From Calditrichota bacterium (GTDB lineage Bacteria > Calditrichota > Calditrichia > JAJRVZ01): a stretch of 42,287 bases of DNA. The translations under genes were made by a program, and so were the position numbers. Each line of letters starts with the position of its first letter. Position 1 is the stretch's first letter. Location: positions 1 to 42,287 of the forward strand of contig JAJRVZ010000047.1 in NCBI GenBank assembly GCA_024277055.1, written 5' to 3'. This document shows, in pieces, positions 1 through 40,102 of this stretch. The notes below the pieces were generated by a model that worked only from the letters and a program-made list of their open reading frames with translations, was not told where the DNA came from and searched no databases.

Positions 1-1651
1 CCAGTTCCCGTATATTTCCCGGCCAAGAATATTTGCAGAGTTGCTGCATCACTTCATCTGAAATTGCGTTTATGGAGCGGTTGTGAATTTTGTTGAATTT
101 TTCAATAAAATGACGGCACAGGTATTCTATATCGCCGGCCCGCTCGCGCAACGCGGGTAAGTGAATATGTACGGTATTCAATCGATAGAACAGATCCGGT
201 CGAAATTTGCCTTCCTTGATCAGAGCATCCATTTTCCGGTTTGTGGCCGCCAGGATTCGAACATTCACGGAAATGGGATTTGGATTCCCCAGGCGCATTA
301 TTTCCCGTTCCTGCAATACCCGCAACAGTTTTACCTGAATGATGCCGGGTATATCGCCGACTTCGTCCAGAAACAGCGTCCCCCCGCTTGCCAGTTCGAT
401 TAAGCCCTTCTTTTTCACGGCCGCACCGGTGAACGCCCCCTTTTCGTAACCGAACAATTCTCCTTCGAGAAGCGTTTCCGGAATGGCGCTGCAATTTACG
501 GCAATAAAAGGCCCTTCGGCGCGGCGTGAATGCTCATGAATCGCCCGTGCTACCAGTTCTTTACCCGTACCCGTTTCCCCGGTAATCAGAACGCTGATAT
601 CGGTCGGGGCAACTCTGCGGGTCAATTCAAATATTTTTTGCATCACCCTGTCCCGGGCAATCATACCGCTGAACCTGAAACGCTCGGCGGAATACAGCCA
701 ATGGTAAAATCCGGCGACCAGTTGTTCAATATCTTTATATCTGCTTTGCAGGTACGAGCGTCTTCTTGACAAATTCAATTTGATGATACTGTTGATACTT
801 TCAACAGACTGGAAAAAGATATTGGGAAATTTGGCTGACGCGTATTGCGCTTTTACGTTTTCAGTCTGGAAAACAAGGTACAGGTTTTCTCTGTAATTTT
901 TCGCAACCTGCACAATATTCTGAATAATTCCATCATCATCATTTTGTGTGTTTATGATAAGCGCCGGCCTGGAAAGAATGTTTTCCAGTTGTGACAATTC
1001 GACAGGAATCAGACTATGTTTTACGGCAATATCATAGGCCTGTGAAAACTTGGAACTCAGCAATTGTGCCGGCTGATGTATTATTGATTTAAAATAACCG
1101 GCGAAACTTAAAACGGTATTTTTATCATGACCGATCAGAATCAGCTGGTGTCCGCTGATATCATCAACTATTTTGCAGGCAATATCCTTTATGGCATCGC
1201 CGGCATTTATGCCGTATTTTTTCATTTCATCACTCTGCAGAACCTGTTCCGTAAAATCGATCGCCAGGCGGTAGAGCTGGGTAAGAACCGGCCCGGAAAG
1301 TTCGAGATCGAGTGAGAGATTAAACGCTTCCTTGTACTGTGTAAGTTTTGCGGGGTCTGCCGCGACAGGATCATGAACTCCCATCATGATTTCAAAAAAG
1401 CGTTTTGCGGCTTCCTGCTGGTGTAATACTGTCGGGTTGGTTACCGAACGATTGAAAACTTCCGCACAGACTGACCGGAGAAAAGGAACCGTTTCGGTTC
1501 CGAAAATAAATATATCATATCTGCCGTTTGAGTTCAGTACAAGACATTCTTCGACACAATGTTCTTCCATTACCGGTTGGATTTTTTCCAGTATATCCGC
1601 TCCGACAGGATTTTTATTACTGTCCGCTATTTCAAAATGTGATAAATACAT
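1..1651 (-). CDS. Sigma54-dependent enhancer-binding protein with an N-terminal degenerate glutamyl-tRNA reductase (HemA)-like domain; 3' end runs off the window
   Basis: Hand translation from ATG 1651 gives 550 sense codons with no stop. Residues ~327-550 carry Walker A GETGTGKE, AVNCSAI, ELFGYEKGAFTGA, Walker B LFLDEV, LLRVLQE, RILAATN, FRPDLFYRL and YSWPGNIREL. Residues 1-321 follow HemA motif order: EECLVLNSNGRYDIF, EAAKRFFEIMMGVHDPVAADPAKLTQYKEAF, SGPVLTQLYRLA, IACKIVDDISGHQLILIG, FPNIFFQSVESINSIIKLNLSRR, LVAGFYHWLYS. The HTH would lie beyond the window. Confidence 0.9.
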   Translation of the reverse strand, partial: MYLSHFEIADSNKNPVGADILEKIQPVMEEHCVEECLVLNSNGRYDIFIFGTETVPFLRSVCAEVFNRSVTNPTVLHQQEAAKRFFEIMMGVHDPVAADPAKLTQYKEAFNLSLDLELSGPVLTQLYRLAIDFTEQVLQSDEMKKYGINAGDAIKDIACKIVDDISGHQLILIGHDKNTVLSFAGYFKSIIHQPAQLLSSKFSQAYDIAVKHSLIPVELSQLENILSRPALIINTQNDDDGIIQNIVQVAKNYRENLYLVFQTENVKAQYASAKFPNIFFQSVESINSIIKLNLSRRRSYLQSRYKDIEQLVAGFYHWLYSAERFRFSGMIARDRVMQKIFELTRRVAPTDISVLITGETGTGKELVARAIHEHSRRAEGPFIAVNCSAIPETLLEGELFGYEKGAFTGAAVKKKGLIELASGGTLFLDEVGDIPGIIQVKLLRVLQEREIMRLGNPNPISVNVRILAATNRKMDALIKEGKFRPDLFYRLNTVHIHLPALRERAGDIEYLCRHFIEKFNKIHNRSINAISDEVMQQLCKYSWPGNIREL

Positions 1652-1654
1652 GGT

Positions 1655-2470
1655 TTAATGAAATGAATGTAATTTCGAAAAATAATTGTTAATTACCAGC
1701 ATGGAAAAAATAATCCAGCTGTAGCCGATGATAGAAAAATAGGCCAAACGGTTTCCGGGCCAGTTCAGTTTCTTTTTCCCCAGAAGTGCAAGACCGAAAA
1801 TGAGCCAGGAAATCAGCACGGCGATTAATTTGGGGTCCCAGGACCAATAGGTGCCCCAGGCCGTTTTTCCTGTAATCGCTCCAAGCACAATTCCAAAACT
1901 GTTGAACACAAATCCAAGCGCCAGGCTCAGATGGATTTTTTTTTCAAGAAATGATAGAGAAGGAAGCCGCTCATAAAAATATCCCAGATGCGTGCTTTTT
2001 ATTTCATGAAAAAGAAGCACATACATTAACCCGGATAAAAATGAAAGTGAAAAGGCTGCATACGCCAGCAGATTGAAAATTACATGTACTTCAAAATACA
2101 GGTTTTTTAAAATTTCCGGTGTTGGTGCGGAAACTTCAATAAACAGCATTGCGATTGAATGCAGAATAAAAATAATGCCGGCATGAAAAACGCCCAGAGC
2201 ATAGGACCGTTCTTTAACTATCACTATCCTGTTTAAAACAGCAAAAAACCAGATAAATGTTGTAATTGCCTGAAATGGATCATTCAGCGGTAAATGGCCC
2301 TTTTCCACGCTGAGCATTACCAGAAAAACCGTATGCAAAATTAACCCGAAGACGAAACTTAATCTGGCCGGCCGTAATTCCTTTTCATTTTGAGACTTGA
2401 AATACTTAAAATAAAAATATGCTGAAATAGCATAGGAAACGGGACCGAGAACTCTTAAGAAAACTATCAT
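1655..2470 (-). CDS. CcsA/HemX-family (cytochrome c assembly, heme-handling) membrane protein
   Basis: 271 aa with about 8 hydrophobic segments. Has the Trp-rich WWD motif WGTYWSWDPK, His residues in GLILHT, FEVHV and the C-terminal LHSF, and the RLPSLSFLEK loop. Upstream of a HemA-like gene; no CcsB/ResB partner in the window. Confidence 0.88.
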   Translation of the reverse strand: MIVFLRVLGPVSYAISAYFYFKYFKSQNEKELRPARLSFVFGLILHTVFLVMLSVEKGHLPLNDPFQAITTFIWFFAVLNRIVIVKERSYALGVFHAGIIFILHSIAMLFIEVSAPTPEILKNLYFEVHVIFNLLAYAAFSLSFLSGLMYVLLFHEIKSTHLGYFYERLPSLSFLEKKIHLSLALGFVFNSFGIVLGAITGKTAWGTYWSWDPKLIAVLISWLIFGLALLGKKKLNWPGNRLAYFSIIGYSWIIFSMLVINNYFSKLHSFH

Positions 2471-2476
2471 TTTAAA

Positions 2477-2518
2477 TGTTTCAGTTTGGAATCATACATT
2501 TTGTTTCAAAATTAAACA
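2477..2518. promoter_or_regulatory. Pair of palindromic operator-like sites (TGTTTCA-N3-TGAAACA) between the putative promoter and the ccsA/hemX-like start codon
   Basis: 2477-2493 is TGTTTCA-GTT-TGGAATC (11/14 consensus positions) and 2502-2518 is TGTTTCA-AAA-TTAAACA (13/14). The same motif recurs at 2778-2814. Confidence 0.6.
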
Positions 2519-2548
2519 AGTATAATACAAAAAAGCCATGTAATGCAA
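2519..2548 (-). promoter_or_regulatory. Putative sigma70-type promoter for the ccsA/hemX-like and bEBP genes
   Basis: Minus strand reads TTGCAT (2548-2543), 18-nt spacer, TATACT (2524-2519). It lies just downstream of the terminator at 2566-2592, so the two genes probably need a promoter here. Confidence 0.4.
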
Positions 2549-2565
2549 GATAAAAAACTATCTAC

Positions 2566-2592
2566 AAAAACCCCCGGTATGTAAACCGGGGG
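2566..2592 (-). terminator. Rho-independent terminator
   Basis: Minus strand reads CCCCCGGT-TTACAT-ACCGGGGG followed by TTTTTG: an 8-bp GC-rich stem plus U-tract. Confidence 0.8.
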
Positions 2593-2655
2593 CTGATCAG
2601 CAAACAACAGGTATTGTTGTTTAGGGAGGAACTGTTGTGGGATAACATTAATAGG
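2566..2655 (-). ncRNA. Candidate sigma54-dependent small RNA (~90 nt) or terminated leader RNA
   Basis: Bounded by a -24/-12-like element (predicted +1 near 2655) and the terminator. Contains the C-rich stretch UUCCUCCCU, a perfect 8-bp hairpin AAACAACA-AUACC-UGUUGUUU (2602-2622) and the terminator hairpin. No RNA family recognised. Confidence 0.5.
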
Positions 2656-2665
2656 GATTTAATAC

Positions 2666-2681
2666 TACAAAATGAATGCCA
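2666..2681 (-). promoter_or_regulatory. Sigma54 (-24/-12)-like promoter
   Basis: Minus strand TGGCATTCATTTTGTA versus consensus TGGCACNNNNNTTGCW. Spacing is exact and the -24 GG is intact, but the -12 element is GT instead of GC. Adjacent to a sigma54 activator gene. Confidence 0.55.
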
Positions 2682-2777
2682 AAAATATATGTGCTTATGC
2701 GTATTGTACAAACTGTTAATTTTTAAGGGATTATCAATCAATACCACTTTTGAGGTTTCGCAGATTACCGGGTTCTT

Positions 2778-2814
2778 GATTTCAATCTGAAACACCGGGT
2801 TTATATTTGAAACA
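2778..2814. promoter_or_regulatory. Tandem palindromic upstream activator sequence candidates
   Basis: 2778-2794 is GATTTCA-ATC-TGAAACA and 2798-2814 is GGTTTAT-ATT-TGAAACA, repeated at 20 bp. They sit about 120-160 bp upstream of the predicted sigma54 start site. Confidence 0.6.
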
Positions 2815-2835: not shown

Positions 2836-4290
2836 TCAGGGGGATAATAATCTCAGCAAAATGGAATTAACAATTTTAGGATTGGCCTTTCCTGCGGATT
2901 TACGCATTACCTGTCCCACGAAAAAACCTATTAACCCGGTTTTTCCGTTTTTGTATGCGTTCACTTCATCGGGATACTCAGCCAGTACTTCTTTTACCAT
3001 GGATTCTATGGCGGAGTCGTCCGAAACCTGAATAAGCCCCATTTCCTTCACGATTACATCTGCCGACTTATCGGAAGTCAGCAAAACATCAAACACCTTT
3101 TTTGCGGCACTGCTGCTTATTTTTCCTTCACGGATCAGTTTCAACAATTCCGCAAATCGTATTTCGGAAATGGGAAATTCTTTAATTTCAATTTTCTTAT
3201 CGTTCAATACCCGCAGTACATCACCGAGAACCCAGTTGCTCACCAGTTTTGCGTCATTGATAATTTTTACGGTTTGTTCATAATAATCCGCCAGTTCTCT
3301 TGAGGAAGTGAGAATTTCCGCATCATATTCCGGTAAACCGTATTGATCCATAAACCGTTGACGACGGACTGCCGGCAATTCCGGTAGCATCTTTTTCAAT
3401 TGCCGTACATAATCCTCTGCAATCTCCAGACGAACGAGATCGGGATCGGGAAAATAGCGATAATCGTGAGCCTCTTCTTTCACCCGCATAATCTGTGCAG
3501 TACCGGATGACGGATCCCACAAAAGTGTGGCCTGTTCAACCGTCCGACCGGATTCCAGCAGTGAAACCTGACGCTGGATTTCGTAGGTCAGTGCATTTTC
3601 TACATTGCGCAGAGAATTCATATTTTTAAGCTCTGTTTTCGTCCCCAGTTCCGTTTCGCCCTTTCTTCGCACCGAAACATTTGCATCGCAGCGCAGGCTG
3701 CCCTGTTCCATGTTTCCATCACATATCCGGAGGTAACGAACCAGTTGGCGGATTAAAGACAAATAGGCGTGGGCCTGTTGCGGCGTTCGCAAATCCGGCT
3801 CCGTGACGATTTCAATTAACGGCGTACCGCAACGATTTAAGTCCACCAGCGAACTTCCCGCGTCTACAAAATCTTCATCGTGCACACTCTTTCCGGCATC
3901 TTCTTCAAGGTGGATGCGATTAATGCGGATAGTGTGCTTTTCACCATCTGTTTCAACCTCAACCCGGCCGTTTTTACAGATGGGATGTTCAAATTGAGAT
4001 ATTTGGTAGCCTTTGGGCAAATCCGGATAGAAATAATTTTTCCTGGCAAAAACATTATGTTCGGATATGGTGCAATTGGTGGCAAGACCCATTTTTATTG
4101 CGAATTCCACCGCCTTTTCATTTAAAACCGGGAGAACGCCGGGCATTCCCAGGCAAACGGGACAGGTCTGTGAATTCGGTTCCGCGCCGAATCGTGCGCT
4201 GCAGCCGCAAAATATCTTGGTAATGGTGCTGAGCTGGGCATGAACTTCGAGCCCGATCACCGCTTCATATTTATCTTCTGAAATAGTCAT
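2836..4290 (-). CDS. gatB: Asp-tRNA(Asn)/Glu-tRNA(Gln) amidotransferase subunit B
   Basis: [54 protein letters not shown] and C-terminal [13 protein letters not shown]. Confidence 0.98.
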
Positions 4291-4293
4291 TGA

Positions 4294-5715
4294 TCACTTA
4301 AAATTTTTCTCTACAAAATCCGCTACCCGAAACAATTTTCCTTCCTCAAACGCATTCGCCATGAATTGCACACCGATGGGCAGACCGGAGGCATCCATAC
4401 CAACAGGAACATTTATTCCGCAGATGCCGGCGAGGTTGGCGGAAACCGTAAATATATCGGAAAGGTACATTTCGAGGGGATCACTGATTTTTTCCCCCAT
4501 GGCAAATGCCGTAGCCGGTGTAGTCGGGGTTAGAATCGTATCAACTTTTCCGAAAGCTTCATCGAATTCTTTTTTGATCAAATGCCTTACCTGCAGGGCT
4601 TTTTTATAATAGGCATCGTAATATCCCGAGGAGAGCACATAGGTTCCGAGCATGATACGGCGACGGACTTCTTCTCCGAAACCGTTTTGCCGGGTACTCC
4701 GGTACATTCCGGCCAGCGTTTCCTGCCGATCATCCCGGTAACCGTACCGTACGCCGTCAAATCGGGCCAGGTTGGAACTGGCCTCGGCCGTTGCGATGAT
4801 ATAGTAAGCGGCGATGCCGAATTCAAGTGTTTTTTCCAGTGAAATTTCAACGATTTCCGCCCCGCTTGCTTGCAGGTAATCGGTAAGTTTTTGCAGTCGG
4901 TCGCCGATCTCTGGCTGGATACCTTTTTCGAGCACCGCCCTGTTTACACCGATGCGTATTCCCCTGATATCACGATTGATGAACGAATGAAAATCCGGAA
5001 CAGGTTCACGACTCGATGTGGAATCCCTTTCATCATGGCCGGAAATTACCCCCAGGATTAACGCTGCATCATCCACGGTTCCGGTCAGTGGGCCGATCTG
5101 GTCCAGTGAAGAGGCAAAAGCGACCAGTCCGAAACGTGAAACCCGGCCGTACGTCGGCTTCAAACCGACGACACCGCTGAATGCAGCCGGTTGTCGAATC
5201 GAACCGCCCGTATCACTTCCCAGTGCGGCCTGTGCCATACCCGCCGCCACTGCAACAGCCGAACCGCCGCTCGACCCGCCCGGTACCCTGGATTCATCAA
5301 CAGAGTTTTTAACATTGCCGAAATATGAGTTTTCATTGGAAGAACCCATGGCAAATTCGTCCATATTGGTTTTACCGATAAAAACCGCTCCGGCATCCGT
5401 CAACTTTCTAATAACAGTGGCATCAAACGGTGAATTAAAGTTTTCGAGGATTCTTGAAGCGCACGATGTTCTGACACCGGCAATATTGATATTGTCCTTA
5501 ATGGCGAATATGGTGCCGGCGAGCGGCCCCGGGTCGGCTCCTCTGGAAATCTCTTCGTCAATCCAGCCTGCTCGTTGCATCGCCCGTTCATTCAGTAAAG
5601 TAATGAAAGCGTTGAGATGTGAATATTCATCACATTTTTTCTGAAAGGATTGAAGGGATTCCGCGGCCGAAAGCTTACCCCTTTTAATTTCCCGAACGTA
5701 TTCACGAAGAGTCAT
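4294..5715 (-). CDS. gatA: Asp-tRNA(Asn)/Glu-tRNA(Gln) amidotransferase subunit A
   Basis: Amidase signature: [73 protein letters not shown]. Confidence 0.98.
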
Positions 5716-22234: not shown

Positions 22235-23518
22235 TTACATTAAAAATGCAGCGGTATTTAATTTCGGCGGATTACCGATCAGTACAAATTGCAAATTATG
22301 AATATATTTTTTGCAAACCTTCTGTACCTCTTTAGCGGAAACTTTTCGCAGATTTCCGATGAATTTTTCTGCGGTTTCATAACCGGCTCCGCTTAATTCG
22401 TAACGCGCCAGCAGAGAGGCCTGGGATTGGTTTGTTTCATTACCGAGATAATAGCGGGTAATGAATACCGATATTTTATCCTTGAGTTCTTTTTCGCTGA
22501 TCATTTCATCCTGCAGCCGTTTCAGTTCGGCCTGCATTACCTTAATCGTCGTATCCGGCTCCACTGCCGTTACATAAATATAGCCGTAATTCGAAAATGA
22601 ACCACCGTAACCGCCACTCGGTGCATAGGATAGATTCCGCTTTGTGCGAACTTCTTCAAACAACCGATCCCGTAAAATGGAACCTGCAATGCTCATGGCA
22701 TAGCTTTCCTCACTCCCAAATGCGGGAGCCGGGAAATATCCCTGGATATAGTTCGTCGGCAGTTCCCGTTTCACGATCTTCAGACTCGGTACATCGTGCT
22801 GCACTGCAGGCGGTAATACCGGCCTGTAATTTCCTTTCGGCAATTCACCAAAACTTTTCTCCACCAGTTCCCGTAATTCGGCTACTGTCGTGTTTCCGAC
22901 AACCACCAGCAGCATATCCGAAGCGGTAACCCTTCCCTTCAAATAGGATTTTAATTCCCCGCCCGAAAAACCGGAAACCGATTCCATAGTGCCGGTTACA
23001 TCAATTTCATAGGGATGGTCCAGGTAGAAGGCCTTGCGGATAAGATTTCTGAGATAGGCGTCGGGATTATCTTTGCTCTGCTTGATATTGGCCAGAATCT
23101 GTTCTCTCACCAATTCCACATCATCGCTTTCGAAGGAGGGATTTAACAGTATATCGGAAAAAATATCCCATGATCTTTCGAAATTGTCTTTCACACACAA
23201 CATGGACAAATTAGAATAGTCCATGGTACTGGAAGAACTGATGCGTGTATTCATGCTCTCCAGCGCGGCGTTCATTTTTTCTTTCGGAAAATTGGTTGTA
23301 GCTTTGCGCGCTACCTGCAGCGCAAATCCTTCAATACCGGCCAGCCGGTTATTCAGAACAGTTGTGCCGCCTCTGAAATACATTTGAGCAGCAATAATAT
23401 CCGTTGCGGAATTTTGCTTGAAAATTATTTTCAGCCCGTTCACGTCAAATGACTGCGCCTCACCGGCTGTGGCAGCAACAGAAAAAACGGCAAGTAAAAC
23501 AATTATTATCTTTTTCAT
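22235..23518 (-). CDS. M16 (pitrilysin-family) peptidase, non-catalytic subunit
   Basis: Signal peptide; no HxxEH; RLFEEVRTKRNLSY (R/Y pair) and MLLVVVGN; adjacent to the catalytic partner. Confidence 0.88.
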   Translation of the reverse strand: MKKIIIVLLAVFSVAATAGEAQSFDVNGLKIIFKQNSATDIIAAQMYFRGGTTVLNNRLAGIEGFALQVARKATTNFPKEKMNAALESMNTRISSSSTMDYSNLSMLCVKDNFERSWDIFSDILLNPSFESDDVELVREQILANIKQSKDNPDAYLRNLIRKAFYLDHPYEIDVTGTMESVSGFSGGELKSYLKGRVTASDMLLVVVGNTTVAELRELVEKSFGELPKGNYRPVLPPAVQHDVPSLKIVKRELPTNYIQGYFPAPAFGSEESYAMSIAGSILRDRLFEEVRTKRNLSYAPSGGYGGSFSNYGYIYVTAVEPDTTIKVMQAELKRLQDEMISEKELKDKISVFITRYYLGNETNQSQASLLARYELSGAGYETAEKFIGNLRKVSAKEVQKVCKKYIHNLQFVLIGNPPKLNTAAFLM

Positions 23519-26744: not shown

Positions 26745-27019
26745 CGGTGCTTTCGTTTTTGTGGCATCTGAAACCGCAATTACAACTGCGCCCGTGTTAA
26801 CTTAATTTCAGGCGATCTATAATAATTTGCGGATTTTTTTTTAAAGGAACAATCGTAATACGAACCAATCACCGTCAGGTTTCAGTAAACAAGCGTAAAG
26901 TTCAGAATTTTTTAAGTTTCAAAAGTGCTTTTCTGAAAACATAACTTTTTCAGACCAAGTTTAGGATTTGAAGATTTTAATTTGTATACTTAACGCTTTA
27001 TTAATTAACGGAGAAAGAA

Positions 27020-36299: not shown

Positions 36300-37292
36300 T
36301 CAGAATTCCAGTAAAAAATTGAATCGGTTCACCGTTCCCAGGCGACCAAAATTGGTGAATGCATAATCCACCCGAACCGTTGCAATGTTCAGTGATTGTC
36401 TTAATCCGAATCCGGCTGAAAAATCCTCTTCGACCTGTGCCGTTTTAAAACCGGCGCGCAATGCCAGAAAACCGTTCCACATATACTCTACACCGAAATT
36501 AATGTTTTCCGAATTGTCATTGGGATGATTGAGTTGTATCGCCGCGGTCAGGCGGTTGTTTTCATCGAATTCAAAATCGTTGGCAATACCGAATCGAAAC
36601 ATCGTGGGCGGTGCGAACGATTGAAAACTGTTTACCGTGTGCGTCCGGTTGTTCAAATCCTTCTGCCGGAAAGAGCCGGTCGGTGTAATGTCCGTTCCGA
36701 AATTGGACAGACTGACAGCAAAGCGGGTATTGGCGAACCCGGTACGGTAGTAAGTACCCAGATCGAACAGCAAAGAGGACATTGAAACTTCGGCAATATC
36801 CTCCCGAGAAGACTTCAGAGTCACTCCGAAGCTGAACTGATCCGTCATTCGTCGTGCATAGGAAACACCGAATAACGCATCGGAAAAGGTGAAATACTGG
36901 CCGGTTCCTAACGGCTGAAAAACAGTGGTTTCTTCCATATCGGCCATGTGCAGATAAGTAAGAGAAAAGCCAATGGTGTTCAGGGCGTCCAGGTGATACA
37001 CAATTCCCGCATTTTCGATTTTTACATCCACCACCCATTGGGTATGGTCGAAATAGACCTGGTTTTCGGTGAATTGCGCCAGTCCGGCAGGATTCCAGTA
37101 CAAGGCGCTGGCATCGTTTGCAACGGCGATGAAGGCCTGCCCGAAAGCTTCGGCCCGGGCACCGACGCCGATTTTCAGAAACTGTGCACTTGAAGTGCCG
37201 ACACGCTGCGCGCCCAAAGTGGGCAACAGCTGCGCCTGCAGCAAAAAAGGCAACAGAAAAAAAGCCAGTATGTAGGATGTGCGTTTCATCAT
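36300..37292 (-). CDS. PorV/PorQ-family outer-membrane beta-barrel protein
   Basis: Signal peptide from MMKRTSY (ATG overlaps the upstream TGA); AQFLKIGVGARA..ANDASALYWNPAGLA, INFGVEY..LALRAG, VDYAF, C-terminal Phe. Confidence 0.85.
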   Translation of the reverse strand: MMKRTSYILAFFLLPFLLQAQLLPTLGAQRVGTSSAQFLKIGVGARAEAFGQAFIAVANDASALYWNPAGLAQFTENQVYFDHTQWVVDVKIENAGIVYHLDALNTIGFSLTYLHMADMEETTVFQPLGTGQYFTFSDALFGVSYARRMTDQFSFGVTLKSSREDIAEVSMSSLLFDLGTYYRTGFANTRFAVSLSNFGTDITPTGSFRQKDLNNRTHTVNSFQSFAPPTMFRFGIANDFEFDENNRLTAAIQLNHPNDNSENINFGVEYMWNGFLALRAGFKTAQVEEDFSAGFGLRQSLNIATVRVDYAFTNFGRLGTVNRFNFLLEF

Positions 37293-40102
37293 CAAAACTC
37301 TACCGATAAGCCGGCTCTGATATTCCGGGGATTCTTGTAACGTGCCGGGTTGTAGGGAAACGGACTGCTGATCGGCCATGAAACATCCGGAAAAAGCGGG
37401 TCATTCCAGCTGGAAGGTACGGGATCGCCGTATTCATAGGCGCGTCCGGTTACCGGATTTACAATATTTGTGTTTTTAAAATTAAACAGGTTCAGTATTT
37501 CAAAATACAGTGTTAATCTTGTATTCAAAAAAACATTATAATATTTTTCAAATTTCAGGTCGGCCCAGCTCCAGATTCCGGCAATTTTGCTGAACTGATC
37601 CCCTTCGTCACGGGAAGTTGAATATAACGGTTGTCCGGTCAGCGGATCATTCTGATCGAAAACCGCCGGGGTGTAACGCTTGCCGGCCATGGCCAGCCAG
37701 TAAAAATTTATATTCCAGCCGGTGGGCATATCAATGCCGAAAAGCTGCCATTTGTCATTTTCCGGATTAAAATAATTCAGGCTCAGATTAGCCTGCCAGG
37801 GACGATCCCACACCGCGAAGGTTTCGCGGATCGGTTCTTCTTCAATCACCCCGAGATAGATCAGGTCCTGAACATTCGGAGACGAATTTTTGGTTGTGAT
37901 AATTGAATAGGAGCCGCCGACGCCGGCACTGAAATTTCGCCCGATTCGAGTGCGGTAATCCACCTCTATTCCCCGTGAGCGCGCATAATCCAGATTCAGA
38001 TAAAATACGGCCGAACCGATACGCGGAATGCCGCGGATCGTCGTGGTTTGGATATAGTCGAATATATCTTTGTAATACGCGGTTATACTGAGCACATCAT
38101 TTTCGGTAAATTTATTTCGGATACCCAGTTCGTAAGCCACCGTTGTTTCCGGATTCAAATTGGGATTGCCGAATTTCTGAAACGAGCCGCTGGCGCTGGT
38201 CGGGCCAAGTTTTGCGTAAACGAACTGCGGCTTCGGCCATTTCGAAAAGTGGCCGTAGTTGAAGAACAACATCATATTGTTGGAGACAGGATGGCTGACT
38301 CCGATCCGCGGACTGATTCGCATTTTATAATGGCGGTCAAACAGGGTAAAAGTCTCGTTGCGGTATTGCCGGCGCATGGCAGGCGTGAGAATGAACAGCG
38401 AAGTATCTTTTATCGCATCGTCCACATATTTCCCGGGAAACCAGTAGTCGAGCCGAACGCCTGCATTCAGAATCATGCCGCTGAAGGTAATATCGTCCTG
38501 CACGTAGGCGCCTCCGATCGCCGGAAAAACACGGTAGATATCCTGGCTGCTGCCCCAGCCGTTATTAAGATAGGGGGCAACGATATCGATCAGTTGCATT
38601 TCCTGCACACGCGATTCGAAACCTATTTTAATCTGGTGGTCTTCCAGTGCATGACTGGTAAAGGTACCTTTCAAGGTCCATTCGTCAACAAAATGATCAT
38701 GCCAGAAACTTGCTTTCCCGCCGTCATAGAATCCGTCCCCGGGTACGACACGAACCCGATTGCTGTCCGGATACCAGTACTGTACCGGCAGGCGGGTGAC
38801 ATCCTGGGCCCGCGAGTAGCTCGTCCAGTGCCCATTGTCGCTGCGCAGGTTGGTAAAATAGCGGCTTAACTTCAGATCGAAAAAATTTGCCTTGTCCAGG
38901 GTATGCGTCCAGCTGAAGGACAGCTGATCGTTGTTGTGGGTAATGGTGTTAAAATTATCCAGAATCTGCGAATACTGATACGGAAAGCCGGGATTCGGGG
39001 GTTCGTAACTCTGCCGCGTTTGCAGTGATTGTGTATTTTGATTTATTGAAACCGACTTGTTATAGGTAAGAACGAATTTATTTATAGGGTTCAGTTTCCA
39101 GGTGAGTTTGAACAAACCGGACCAATTATTGTTCTGCCGCGGCGCAAAACGGGTTCCGTAAAAAATGGAAGAATTCAGTTGTTTCGCTGCGGTACGGGTA
39201 TAATCATCCGATATAAACATGTACAAATTGGTAAAAATGTAAAACTCACCCGGAAGGTCAAGCCCAAGAAAAGGAAACAGTTTGGCGCTTATCGGTTCCG
39301 GACCGCCGAATGTCATTTCAACAATATCCGAATTGAAACTGAAGGATTGATCACGAAACATACCCAGGTGATCCGATTTATAGGAAAAGGAACCGGAATA
39401 GGTGTCACCACCCGATTTGGTTCGTACATTGATCACACCGGAAGTCGCCTGTCCGTATTCTGCGCGGTAACCGCCGGTCATTACTTCGACTTCTTCGATG
39501 GCATTTTTACTGAGATTCAATCCAAAACCGGTACCGGCCAGGGGGTCCTGTACGGAAATATCATCCAGCAGGTAGGCCGTCTCGTGTGTGCGGCTGCCGC
39601 GAATATGAATCTCGTTATCCGTTTCAACCACACCGGTTTGCTGGGCGATCAGTCCCTGAACGTTTTCAATGGCCTTCCCTGCTATCTCCGCCCCGCTGAT
39701 TGTCTTTGAGCTGGCTGTTTCCTTTATATCAAAAAGCGGTTTTTCACCAATAACCACAATTTCCTGTCCCAGGGCCAGAATGGTCGGTTGCAAAGAAATA
39801 TTCACTACCGAGTTCTTTCCGGCTTCAACCTTTACGCCGGTGCGTTTGGTCACTTTATACCCGACAAACTGGATTTCCAGCGAATATTCCCCCGATTTTA
39901 CATTTTCAATAAGATAAAACCCCTCCAGATCGGTAGAAGCGCCGAGATAGGTACCCTCTACTGAAATATTGACCCCGATCAGCGGTTCACCGGTTTCGGC
40001 GTCGCTGATTACGCCGGATATTTTACCGGGTTGGTTTTGTGCGAAAAGATAAACGGACAGAATCATGAACAGGTATAATCGTGAAAATTTCATAGGCATC
40101 AC
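37292..40102 (-). CDS. TonB-dependent receptor with N-terminal carboxypeptidase-regulatory-like domain
   Basis: GKISGVISDAETGEPLIGVNI, plug IHIRGSR and GGYRAEYGQATSGVIN, ISPRIG, GNPNLNPETTVAYELG, C-terminal PRNIRAGLSVEF. Confidence 0.92.
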   Translation of the reverse strand: MMPMKFSRLYLFMILSVYLFAQNQPGKISGVISDAETGEPLIGVNISVEGTYLGASTDLEGFYLIENVKSGEYSLEIQFVGYKVTKRTGVKVEAGKNSVVNISLQPTILALGQEIVVIGEKPLFDIKETASSKTISGAEIAGKAIENVQGLIAQQTGVVETDNEIHIRGSRTHETAYLLDDISVQDPLAGTGFGLNLSKNAIEEVEVMTGGYRAEYGQATSGVINVRTKSGGDTYSGSFSYKSDHLGMFRDQSFSFNSDIVEMTFGGPEPISAKLFPFLGLDLPGEFYIFTNLYMFISDDYTRTAAKQLNSSIFYGTRFAPRQNNNWSGLFKLTWKLNPINKFVLTYNKSVSINQNTQSLQTRQSYEPPNPGFPYQYSQILDNFNTITHNNDQLSFSWTHTLDKANFFDLKLSRYFTNLRSDNGHWTSYSRAQDVTRLPVQYWYPDSNRVRVVPGDGFYDGGKASFWHDHFVDEWTLKGTFTSHALEDHQIKIGFESRVQEMQLIDIVAPYLNNGWGSSQDIYRVFPAIGGAYVQDDITFSGMILNAGVRLDYWFPGKYVDDAIKDTSLFILTPAMRRQYRNETFTLFDRHYKMRISPRIGVSHPVSNNMMLFFNYGHFSKWPKPQFVYAKLGPTSASGSFQKFGNPNLNPETTVAYELGIRNKFTENDVLSITAYYKDIFDYIQTTTIRGIPRIGSAVFYLNLDYARSRGIEVDYRTRIGRNFSAGVGGSYSIITTKNSSPNVQDLIYLGVIEEEPIRETFAVWDRPWQANLSLNYFNPENDKWQLFGIDMPTGWNINFYWLAMAGKRYTPAVFDQNDPLTGQPLYSTSRDEGDQFSKIAGIWSWADLKFEKYYNVFLNTRLTLYFEILNLFNFKNTNIVNPVTGRAYEYGDPVPSSWNDPLFPDVSWPISSPFPYNPARYKNPRNIRAGLSVEF

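Follow-up and report, generated by a model that had tools for sequence, protein, structure and literature searches.

Among activators of sigma-54 RNA polymerase, the classical case is NtrC (NRI) of enteric bacteria, with its sites at glnAp2, glnAp1 and glnLp. The accessible part of PMC6296734 describes the tandem duplication of a palindrome upstream of sigma-54 promoters as the usual arrangement for bacterial enhancer-binding proteins, and reports that activation of crcZ and crcY by CbrB depends on integration host factor (IHF), whose site lies between the activator sites and the promoter. According to the available text of PMC8043402, a single fragment with sites for phosphorylated LuxO and for sigma-54 contains the qrr1 promoter when read in one direction and that of luxO when read in the opposite one, and LuxO represses its own transcription (PMC3130561, in excerpt). 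HemX, a PF01578 protein, controls the abundance of glutamyl-tRNA reductase (GluTR) in Staphylococcus aureus and Bacillus subtilis, by a mechanism that is called undefined in the sections available of PMC5801465. Here we analyze a 42,287-nt stretch of DNA from a Calditrichota bacterium (contig JAJRVZ010000047.1 of assembly GCA_024277055.1; hereafter the window), in which four copies of a 17-bp dyad resembling TGTTTCA-N3-TGAAACA lie in the spacer between gatB and an operon for a HemX-like membrane protein and a sigma-54 activator. We propose, with a probability of about 0.5 for the proposal as a whole, that the dyads are sites for this activator, with the upstream pair working as an enhancer and the downstream pair limiting the expression of the activator's own operon.

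The spacer extends for 365 bp (2471-2835, 33% GC), and an earlier examination made from the letters alone (the sequence-only reading) had pointed out in it four 17-mers similar to this consensus, all of which are found where it placed them. With mismatches counted over the 14 specified positions of TGTTTCA-N3-TGAAACA, these are site 1 (TGTTTCAGTTTGGAATC, 2477-2493; 3 mismatches), located 7-23 nt 5′ of the ATG (2470) of the HemX-like gene; site 2 (TGTTTCAAAATTAAACA, 2502-2518; 1 mismatch), centered 40 bp 5′ of the ATG and contiguous to a TATACT hexamer; site 3 (GATTTCAATCTGAAACA, or TGTTTCAGATTGAAATC in its minus-strand reading, 2778-2794; 2 mismatches), which would be the proximal enhancer site; and site 4 (GGTTTATATTTGAAACA, TGTTTCAAATATAAACC in its minus-strand reading, 2798-2814; 3 mismatches), which would be the distal one. 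Every site is composed of one exact heptamer half and one degenerate half; starting from the exact half, their sequences are TGTTTCA-GTT-TGGAATC (site 1), TGTTTCA-AAA-TTAAACA (site 2), TGTTTCA-GAT-TGAAATC (site 3) and TGTTTCA-AAT-ATAAACC (site 4). Within the array, site 1 is similar to site 3 and site 2 to site 4: site 3 agrees with the reverse complement of site 1 at 15 of 17 positions, and site 4 with that of site 2 at 14 of 17, as had been claimed, and a repeat search recovers both inverted pairs (I3, 18 nt, 89%; I4, 17 nt, 88%). The exact half-sites of all four dyads point away from a small RNA gene predicted between the two pairs, and the array has mirror symmetry around 2646-2648, not far from the start predicted for that RNA at 2655. 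The centers lie 20 bp apart in the upstream pair (sites 3 and 4) and 25 bp apart in the downstream pair (sites 1 and 2). A direct repeat of 8 nt, ACCGGGTT (2767-2774 and 2794-2801), brackets site 3 and comes before site 4; the downstream pair lacks it.

Comparisons with shuffled sequences revealed that this array is not a product of base composition. The window contains nine matches to the consensus with up to three mismatches, whereas 100 shuffles averaged 3.41 and never reached nine; four of the nine fall within 338 bp of the spacer, while the other five are all single, have three mismatches and lie, by their open reading frame (ORF) coordinates, inside coding regions or at their ends. With the same fixed consensus, 2000 shuffles of the 33%-GC spacer alone yielded a mean of 0.08 matches and a maximum of 2. 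Because the consensus had been derived from these same data, we added a motif-blind statistic, which asks, against dinucleotide shuffles of the spacer, how many dyads of the form 7-N3-7 can be counted without overlap, whatever the 7-mer, when one half must be exact and the other may carry up to three mismatches: the real spacer contains four, a number reached by none of 3000 shuffles, with only 16 reaching three. Additionally, 4 of the 17 exact TGTTTCA/TGAAACA heptamers in the window are within the 338 bp. The sequence-only reading had allowed that the motif might be no more frequent than expected in AT-rich DNA; the spacer shuffles indicate otherwise, and the dyad motif is non-random, beyond AT-rich chance. 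It is very likely that the dyads are protein-binding sites, and their 17-bp geometry is the usual one for activators with a Fis-type helix-turn-helix (HTH).

The clustering of the shorter hexamers GTTTCA/TGAAAC is not special to this spacer, since there are 55 in the window, with another group of four within the coding region at 22374-22768. A 275-bp spacer between divergent genes for a radical-SAM protein and a peptidyl-prolyl isomerase (26745-27019) contains three of these hexamers and an imperfect palindrome around 26916-26940; it shows neither a 7-N3-7 dyad nor a -24/-12 element.

On the minus strand, from which the genes at both sides of the spacer are also read, the sequence TGGCATTCATTTTGT (2667-2681) resembles the -24/-12 element of sigma-54 promoters. 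It is the sole exact TGGCAY-N5-TTGY in the 42-kb window, it is in the correct orientation, and it follows sites 3 and 4 on their downstream side, at 97-147 bp. An element at 2681-2667 predicts a start near 2655, ~12 nt downstream, and therefore situates the upstream sites from -123 to -159, with their centers at about -131 (site 3) and -151 (site 4), in agreement with the distance of ~120-160 bp previously given for one of the pairs. There are, then, two tandem dyads within the ~80-200 bp upstream of a predicted sigma-54 start, and on this geometry we lean toward the upstream pair being an enhancer.

Transcription from this start would produce a predicted small RNA of ~90-103 nt (2553-2655, minus strand), with a minimum free energy of -29.3 kcal/mol (z -3.5). 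In the predicted fold, the 5′ part is single-stranded and C-rich, with an exposed CCUCCC at 2629-2624, and is followed by a hairpin at 2622-2602 and by a terminator at 2594-2569, consisting of a 10-bp GC-rich stem and then U runs (U5). A scan against Rfam found no family at its gathering score, with eight sub-threshold matches that are mostly on the terminator. The best of these is to the anti-hemB RNA of Burkholderia (RF02837; 2563-2640, minus strand; 19.3 bits versus a gathering score of 49.5, E 0.042), in an alignment that depends on a common UCCUCCCU stretch upstream of the terminator and on the terminator itself. The likeness is a resemblance in design, not membership of the family, although the parallel is curious beside the heme-related neighbor genes. 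Two copies of ACAACAG/ACAACAA within the RNA (2609-2638, minus strand) give two competing hairpins, with the CCUCCC unpaired in either. There is also an ORF of 28 codons (2562-2648, minus strand; ATG at 2648-2646) within the predicted small RNA, which runs across the terminator and lacks a Shine-Dalgarno-like motif; it is probably not coding.

The gene order on the minus strand is gatB (2836-4290), which forms the 5′ border of the spacer, the spacer itself, the HemX-like gene and, 3 bases further, the gene for the sigma-54 activator. The same motif as in the enhancer pair lies over the 5′ end of this HemX-like/activator operon, where we found a putative weak sigma-70 promoter (2519-2548, minus strand) composed of TTGCAT (2548-2543), an 18-nt spacer and TATACT (2524-2519), with 8 of the 12 consensus positions. 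Site 2 adjoins the TATACT, so that the second pair is directly downstream of this hexamer, as the sequence-only reading had it. If this promoter were used, site 2 would span from about -6 to +11 and site 1 from about +20 to +36, ending 7 nt 5′ of the ATG. It is possible, although somewhat short of an even chance in our estimation, that sites 1 and 2 form an operator for autorepression. No second -24/-12 element for the operon occurs between 2560 and 2471. We also considered a Bacteroidetes-type promoter, TAnnTTTG, which has one match within site 2; this candidate was discarded, as the spacing to the upstream TTTG does not fit and about half of the genes in the window have Shine-Dalgarno-like motifs.

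The activator gene (2-1651, minus strand) is truncated by the end of the contig, and its product comprises a GluTR-like sensor (residues 1-325) and an AAA+ domain (Sigma54_activat, 235 bits) with a GAFTGA motif visible in the translation. In the full-length fused relatives that we scanned, Sigma54_activat was found in seven of seven and a Fis-type HTH_8 domain also in seven of seven. Residues 1-325 match GluTRs over their full length, with 262 HMMER matches at E≤1e-3, most of them of ~420 amino acids, in a search of 1.84 billion cluster representatives. Among the best 150 matches listed there are ~10 representatives of fused forms, of 530-675 amino acids and no more than 33% identical, suggesting that the family of GluTR-like sigma-54 activators is rare. 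An AlphaFold model of the sensor (pLDDT 85.9) retrieved GluTR structures as its top seven PDB matches, the best being 1GPJ (E 8e-15, TMq 0.65). The cysteine of the STCNR motif is catalytic in GluTR; 11 of 11 fused members lack this motif, which nine of nine HemA controls have, and the GlutR_dimer domain was similarly found in six of six HemA controls and in none of seven fused members. The loss of STCNR in the fused members makes the sensor a pseudo-enzyme and, to judge from these sequences, a catalytically dead glutamyl-tRNA reductase. A word-based homolog search with the sensor domain gave no match. In a limited literature search we found no paper on a GluTR-like sigma-54 activator, the two Pfam names not occurring together among the matches listed; the same kind of search with the dyad motif returned, among the matches listed, unrelated primers only, and PMC12316311 contains nothing on promoters, small RNAs or heme of this lineage.

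The first gene of the operon (1655-2470, minus strand) encodes a HemX/CcsA-family membrane protein of 271 amino acids, with a tryptophan-rich WGTYWSWDPK motif, which scores 94.3 bits against PF01578, above the cutoff of 29.9, and 124.5 against the CcsB equivalog, below its cutoff of 187.6. Its relatives P0153-P0170 share 45-59% identity. Since two relatives from metagenomic gene calls, P0193 and P0198, continue into the start of a true hemA, the hemX-hemA order looks ancestral, with hemA having here been made into a regulator. Co-folding of the HemX-like protein with the sensor produced ipSAE values of 0.61, 0.59 and 0.61, versus 0.00 for the best of three controls. Of 80 solved complexes 58 attained 0.61, as did two of 110 mismatched pairs; because the co-folding used our own alignments, these counts apply only approximately. 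The runs showed at least 97% agreement in contacts, with a pLDDT of at least 78 for the partner, and the predicted interface, between residues 153-174 and 236-241 of the HemX-like protein and residues 157-163 and 254-292 of the activator, involves family-invariant residues (K160 and I161 in the sensor; P170 and W237 in the HemX-like protein) as well as the nearly invariant L172 of the HemX-like protein. These models support, rather than show, that the HemX-like protein binds the sensor.

Together, these observations suggest a mechanism in which the 17-bp dyads would each receive a dimer of the sigma-54 activator, whose gene lies 0.8 kb downstream, and we think it likely that the adjacent activator is indeed the protein that binds them. 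Two activator dimers at approximately -130 and -150 (2778-2814) would nucleate an ATPase ring, which would open the sigma-54 promoter at 2681-2667; the opened promoter would make the ~100-nt small RNA, whose exposed CCUCCC could pair with ribosome-binding sites. When occupied, the pair at 2477-2518 would curb synthesis of the activator itself. The input of the activator is probably heme or tetrapyrrole status, which would reach it through the dead GluTR domain touching the co-encoded HemX-type membrane protein. A more ambitious version, which we consider rather unlikely in its entirety, is an undescribed heme-status pathway in which the HemX-type protein would hold or release the fossil-GluTR activator, the mirror-image pairs would form a two-sided looped enhancer, and the sigma-54-dependent anti-Shine-Dalgarno small RNA would retune the synthesis of heme or iron proteins while the same occupancy throttles the activator's own operon. 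For the proposal of enhancer plus operator, the geometry is sound and precedents exist in NtrC, LuxO-qrr1 and CbrB-crcZ, although it stays unproven.

Several results weigh against this proposal. With respect to the promoter, chance would place 0.55 exact TGGCAY-N5-TTGY matches in the window, and one or more turned up in 43 of 100 shuffles, while the -12 element reads TTGT instead of TTGC (GT for GC), so that a lone -24/-12-like match is by itself weak evidence. An IHF-like sequence between enhancer and promoter had also been noted, and AATTAACAGTTTG (2709-2721, minus strand) is indeed present, with one mismatch to WATCAANNNNTTR; however, the window has 28 occurrences of the one-mismatch pattern where 58 would be expected, and 100 of 100 shuffles had at least 28, a chance level that leaves this match without any weight. 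The promoter and terminator scan called no terminator for the predicted small RNA, and it also missed the TTGCAT-18-TATACT promoter of the operon. An RNA duplex scan against 35 start regions in the window gave a best value of -24.6 kcal/mol, equaled by 52 of 100 shuffled RNAs, and for this reason we propose no target for the RNA within the window. The dyads themselves raise objections: the difference in spacing, 20 versus 25 bp, implies that the two pairs cannot present dimers alike; a looser count of palindromes, with overlapping windows allowed, was not significant, as 57 of 300 shuffles reached four; and there is no further paired dyad site elsewhere in the window. Lastly, the HTH of the activator lies beyond the end of the contig, and we infer its presence from the relatives; no relative of the activator was found in scans of genome contigs (with a single N-terminal domain and a 4-sequence alignment) or of plasmids (with tblastn). 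The former suggestion that the motif belongs to the activator, which would activate the small RNA and repress its own operon, is thus favored by the non-random motif, by a pair at enhancer distance and by the activator gene in the adjoining operon, but it loses the backing of the IHF site and gains little from the weak sigma-70 promoter.

The same data can be read in other ways, which differ in how they account for the two pairs. All four sites might serve the sigma-54 promoter, with no promoter for the operon, the downstream pair being a second enhancer or a roadblock in a 185-nt leader and the operon being expressed by read-through of the terminator, with positive autoregulation. NtrC enhancers can act from either side, and this arrangement would suit both the outward-facing exact halves and the mirror symmetry centered so near the predicted start; it would also agree with a sigma-70 promoter that is weak and was missed by the scan, and with the distance of 185 nt from the predicted start to the ATG, with the terminator ~85-100 nt before the ATG, which is a typical leader/attenuator layout. 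We nevertheless regard it as improbable, because the terminator has a 10-bp GC-rich stem and U5, with no competing antiterminator in the fold; because site 2 adjoins TATACT exactly, which is explained if it is an operator; and because sites 1 and 2 are separated by 25 bp instead of the 20 bp of the enhancer pair.

It is equally doubtful that the dyads are operators of some other dimeric regulator, such as an iron-, heme- or redox-responsive repressor that would shut both the RNA region and the operon, with the sigma-54 activator binding elsewhere or acting from solution. The 7-N3-7 dyad geometry is used by many regulator families, the HTH of the activator is outside the contig, and the scans of genome contigs supplied no relative with which to tie the motif to the activator family. 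Conversely, the pair at -131/-151 sits where an enhancer is expected, a poor place for a repressor of a sigma-54 promoter; the nearest regulator gene is that of the sigma-54 activator, and the other annotated ORFs of the window that we scanned matched no Pfam DNA-binding domain. That the repeats are non-functional, be it by chance in AT-rich DNA, as relics of a local duplication or as RNA hairpins, seems to us highly improbable. The spacer has only 33% GC, the loose palindrome count was easily reached by shuffles and one half is degenerate in each site, but none of the 3000 shuffles gave four non-overlapping sites with an exact half, and the 338 bp concentrate 4 of the 17 exact heptamers in the window. 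Moreover, the repeat search of the window revealed no longer repeat unit or mobile element across the sites, and the RNA of the sites folds at only 0 to -2 kcal/mol, no better than shuffles (25, 31, 62 and 200 of 200 shuffles, respectively, fold at least equally well), for which we rejected the hairpins.

Elsewhere in the window, gatA (4294-5715, minus strand) is found 5′ of gatB, and there are PorV and Por_Secre_tail genes, which point to an organism of the FCB group. The PorV-like ORF (36300-37379) and the ORF for a TonB-dependent receptor (37292-40102, minus strand) overlap by 88 nt as listed; probably, the GTG start of the receptor was called too far upstream.

If the dyads are the sites of the activator, they would provide a 17-bp handle to search complete genomes of the lineage for its regulon. 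A further use of the locus would be as a tractable system, with a transcriptional read-out, for the action of HemX on GluTR, whose mechanism is termed undefined in the part of PMC5801465 available.

The sites of this locus resemble those of NtrC in that both are 17-bp 7-N3-7 dyads, in that the enhancer, here a proposed one, is a tandem pair situated over 100 bp upstream of the sigma-54 promoter, and in that the NtrC motif, when placed over sigma-70 promoters, represses them, including that of the regulator's own operon. They differ in the half-site, here TGTTTCA; in the product, here a small RNA instead of glnA; and in the spacing within the enhancer pair, here 20 bp. The activator also differs, as here it has no receiver domain and its sensor is a dead GluTR.

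The LuxO motif is TTGCA-N3-TGCAA, and LuxO is a phosphorylated response regulator. The resemblance to the Vibrio system is in the layout, since there too a sigma-54-dependent small RNA gene adjoins the gene of its own activator and, in the accessible text of PMC8043402, one short spacer with the activator and sigma-54 sites serves both promoters. By analogy, luxO-qrr1 appears as a direct precedent for small RNA and activator genes with a shared spacer and autorepression, but the design of the reporters described there (PMC8043402) implies that qrr1 and luxO diverge, whereas here the two genes are co-directional with a terminator between them. As described in the available part of PMC6296734, CbrB of Pseudomonas similarly is a sigma-54 activator that drives the regulatory small RNAs crcZ and crcY from sites upstream of a GG-N10-GC promoter; nevertheless, its subsites (TGTTAC/GTAACA) are non-palindromic and variably spaced, in contrast to the dyads of this locus, where the IHF-like match does not exceed chance. 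The NifA upstream activating sequence, given as TGT-N10-ACA in the same text (PMC6296734), also lies upstream of a sigma-54 promoter and shares with our sites the outer TGT...ACA dyad; in our case this dyad is TGT-N11-ACA (17 bp), its specified half-site is longer, and it comes in tandem pairs.

Finally, the operon is reminiscent of the HemX-GluTR (GtrR/HemA) pair of Bacillus and Staphylococcus, in which the gene for a PF01578 membrane protein is beside a GluTR-fold gene and the known HemX acts on GluTR (PMC5801465, in the sections available). In this case, however, the GluTR fold has lost STCNR, and its dimerization domain is replaced by an AAA+/HTH module, the HTH being known from the relatives, so that what is controlled would be transcription instead of the abundance of an enzyme. 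The architecture of the sites is a textbook one for sigma-54 activators, and what is unusual is the regulator, with its dead GluTR sensor and its HemX-type membrane partner.

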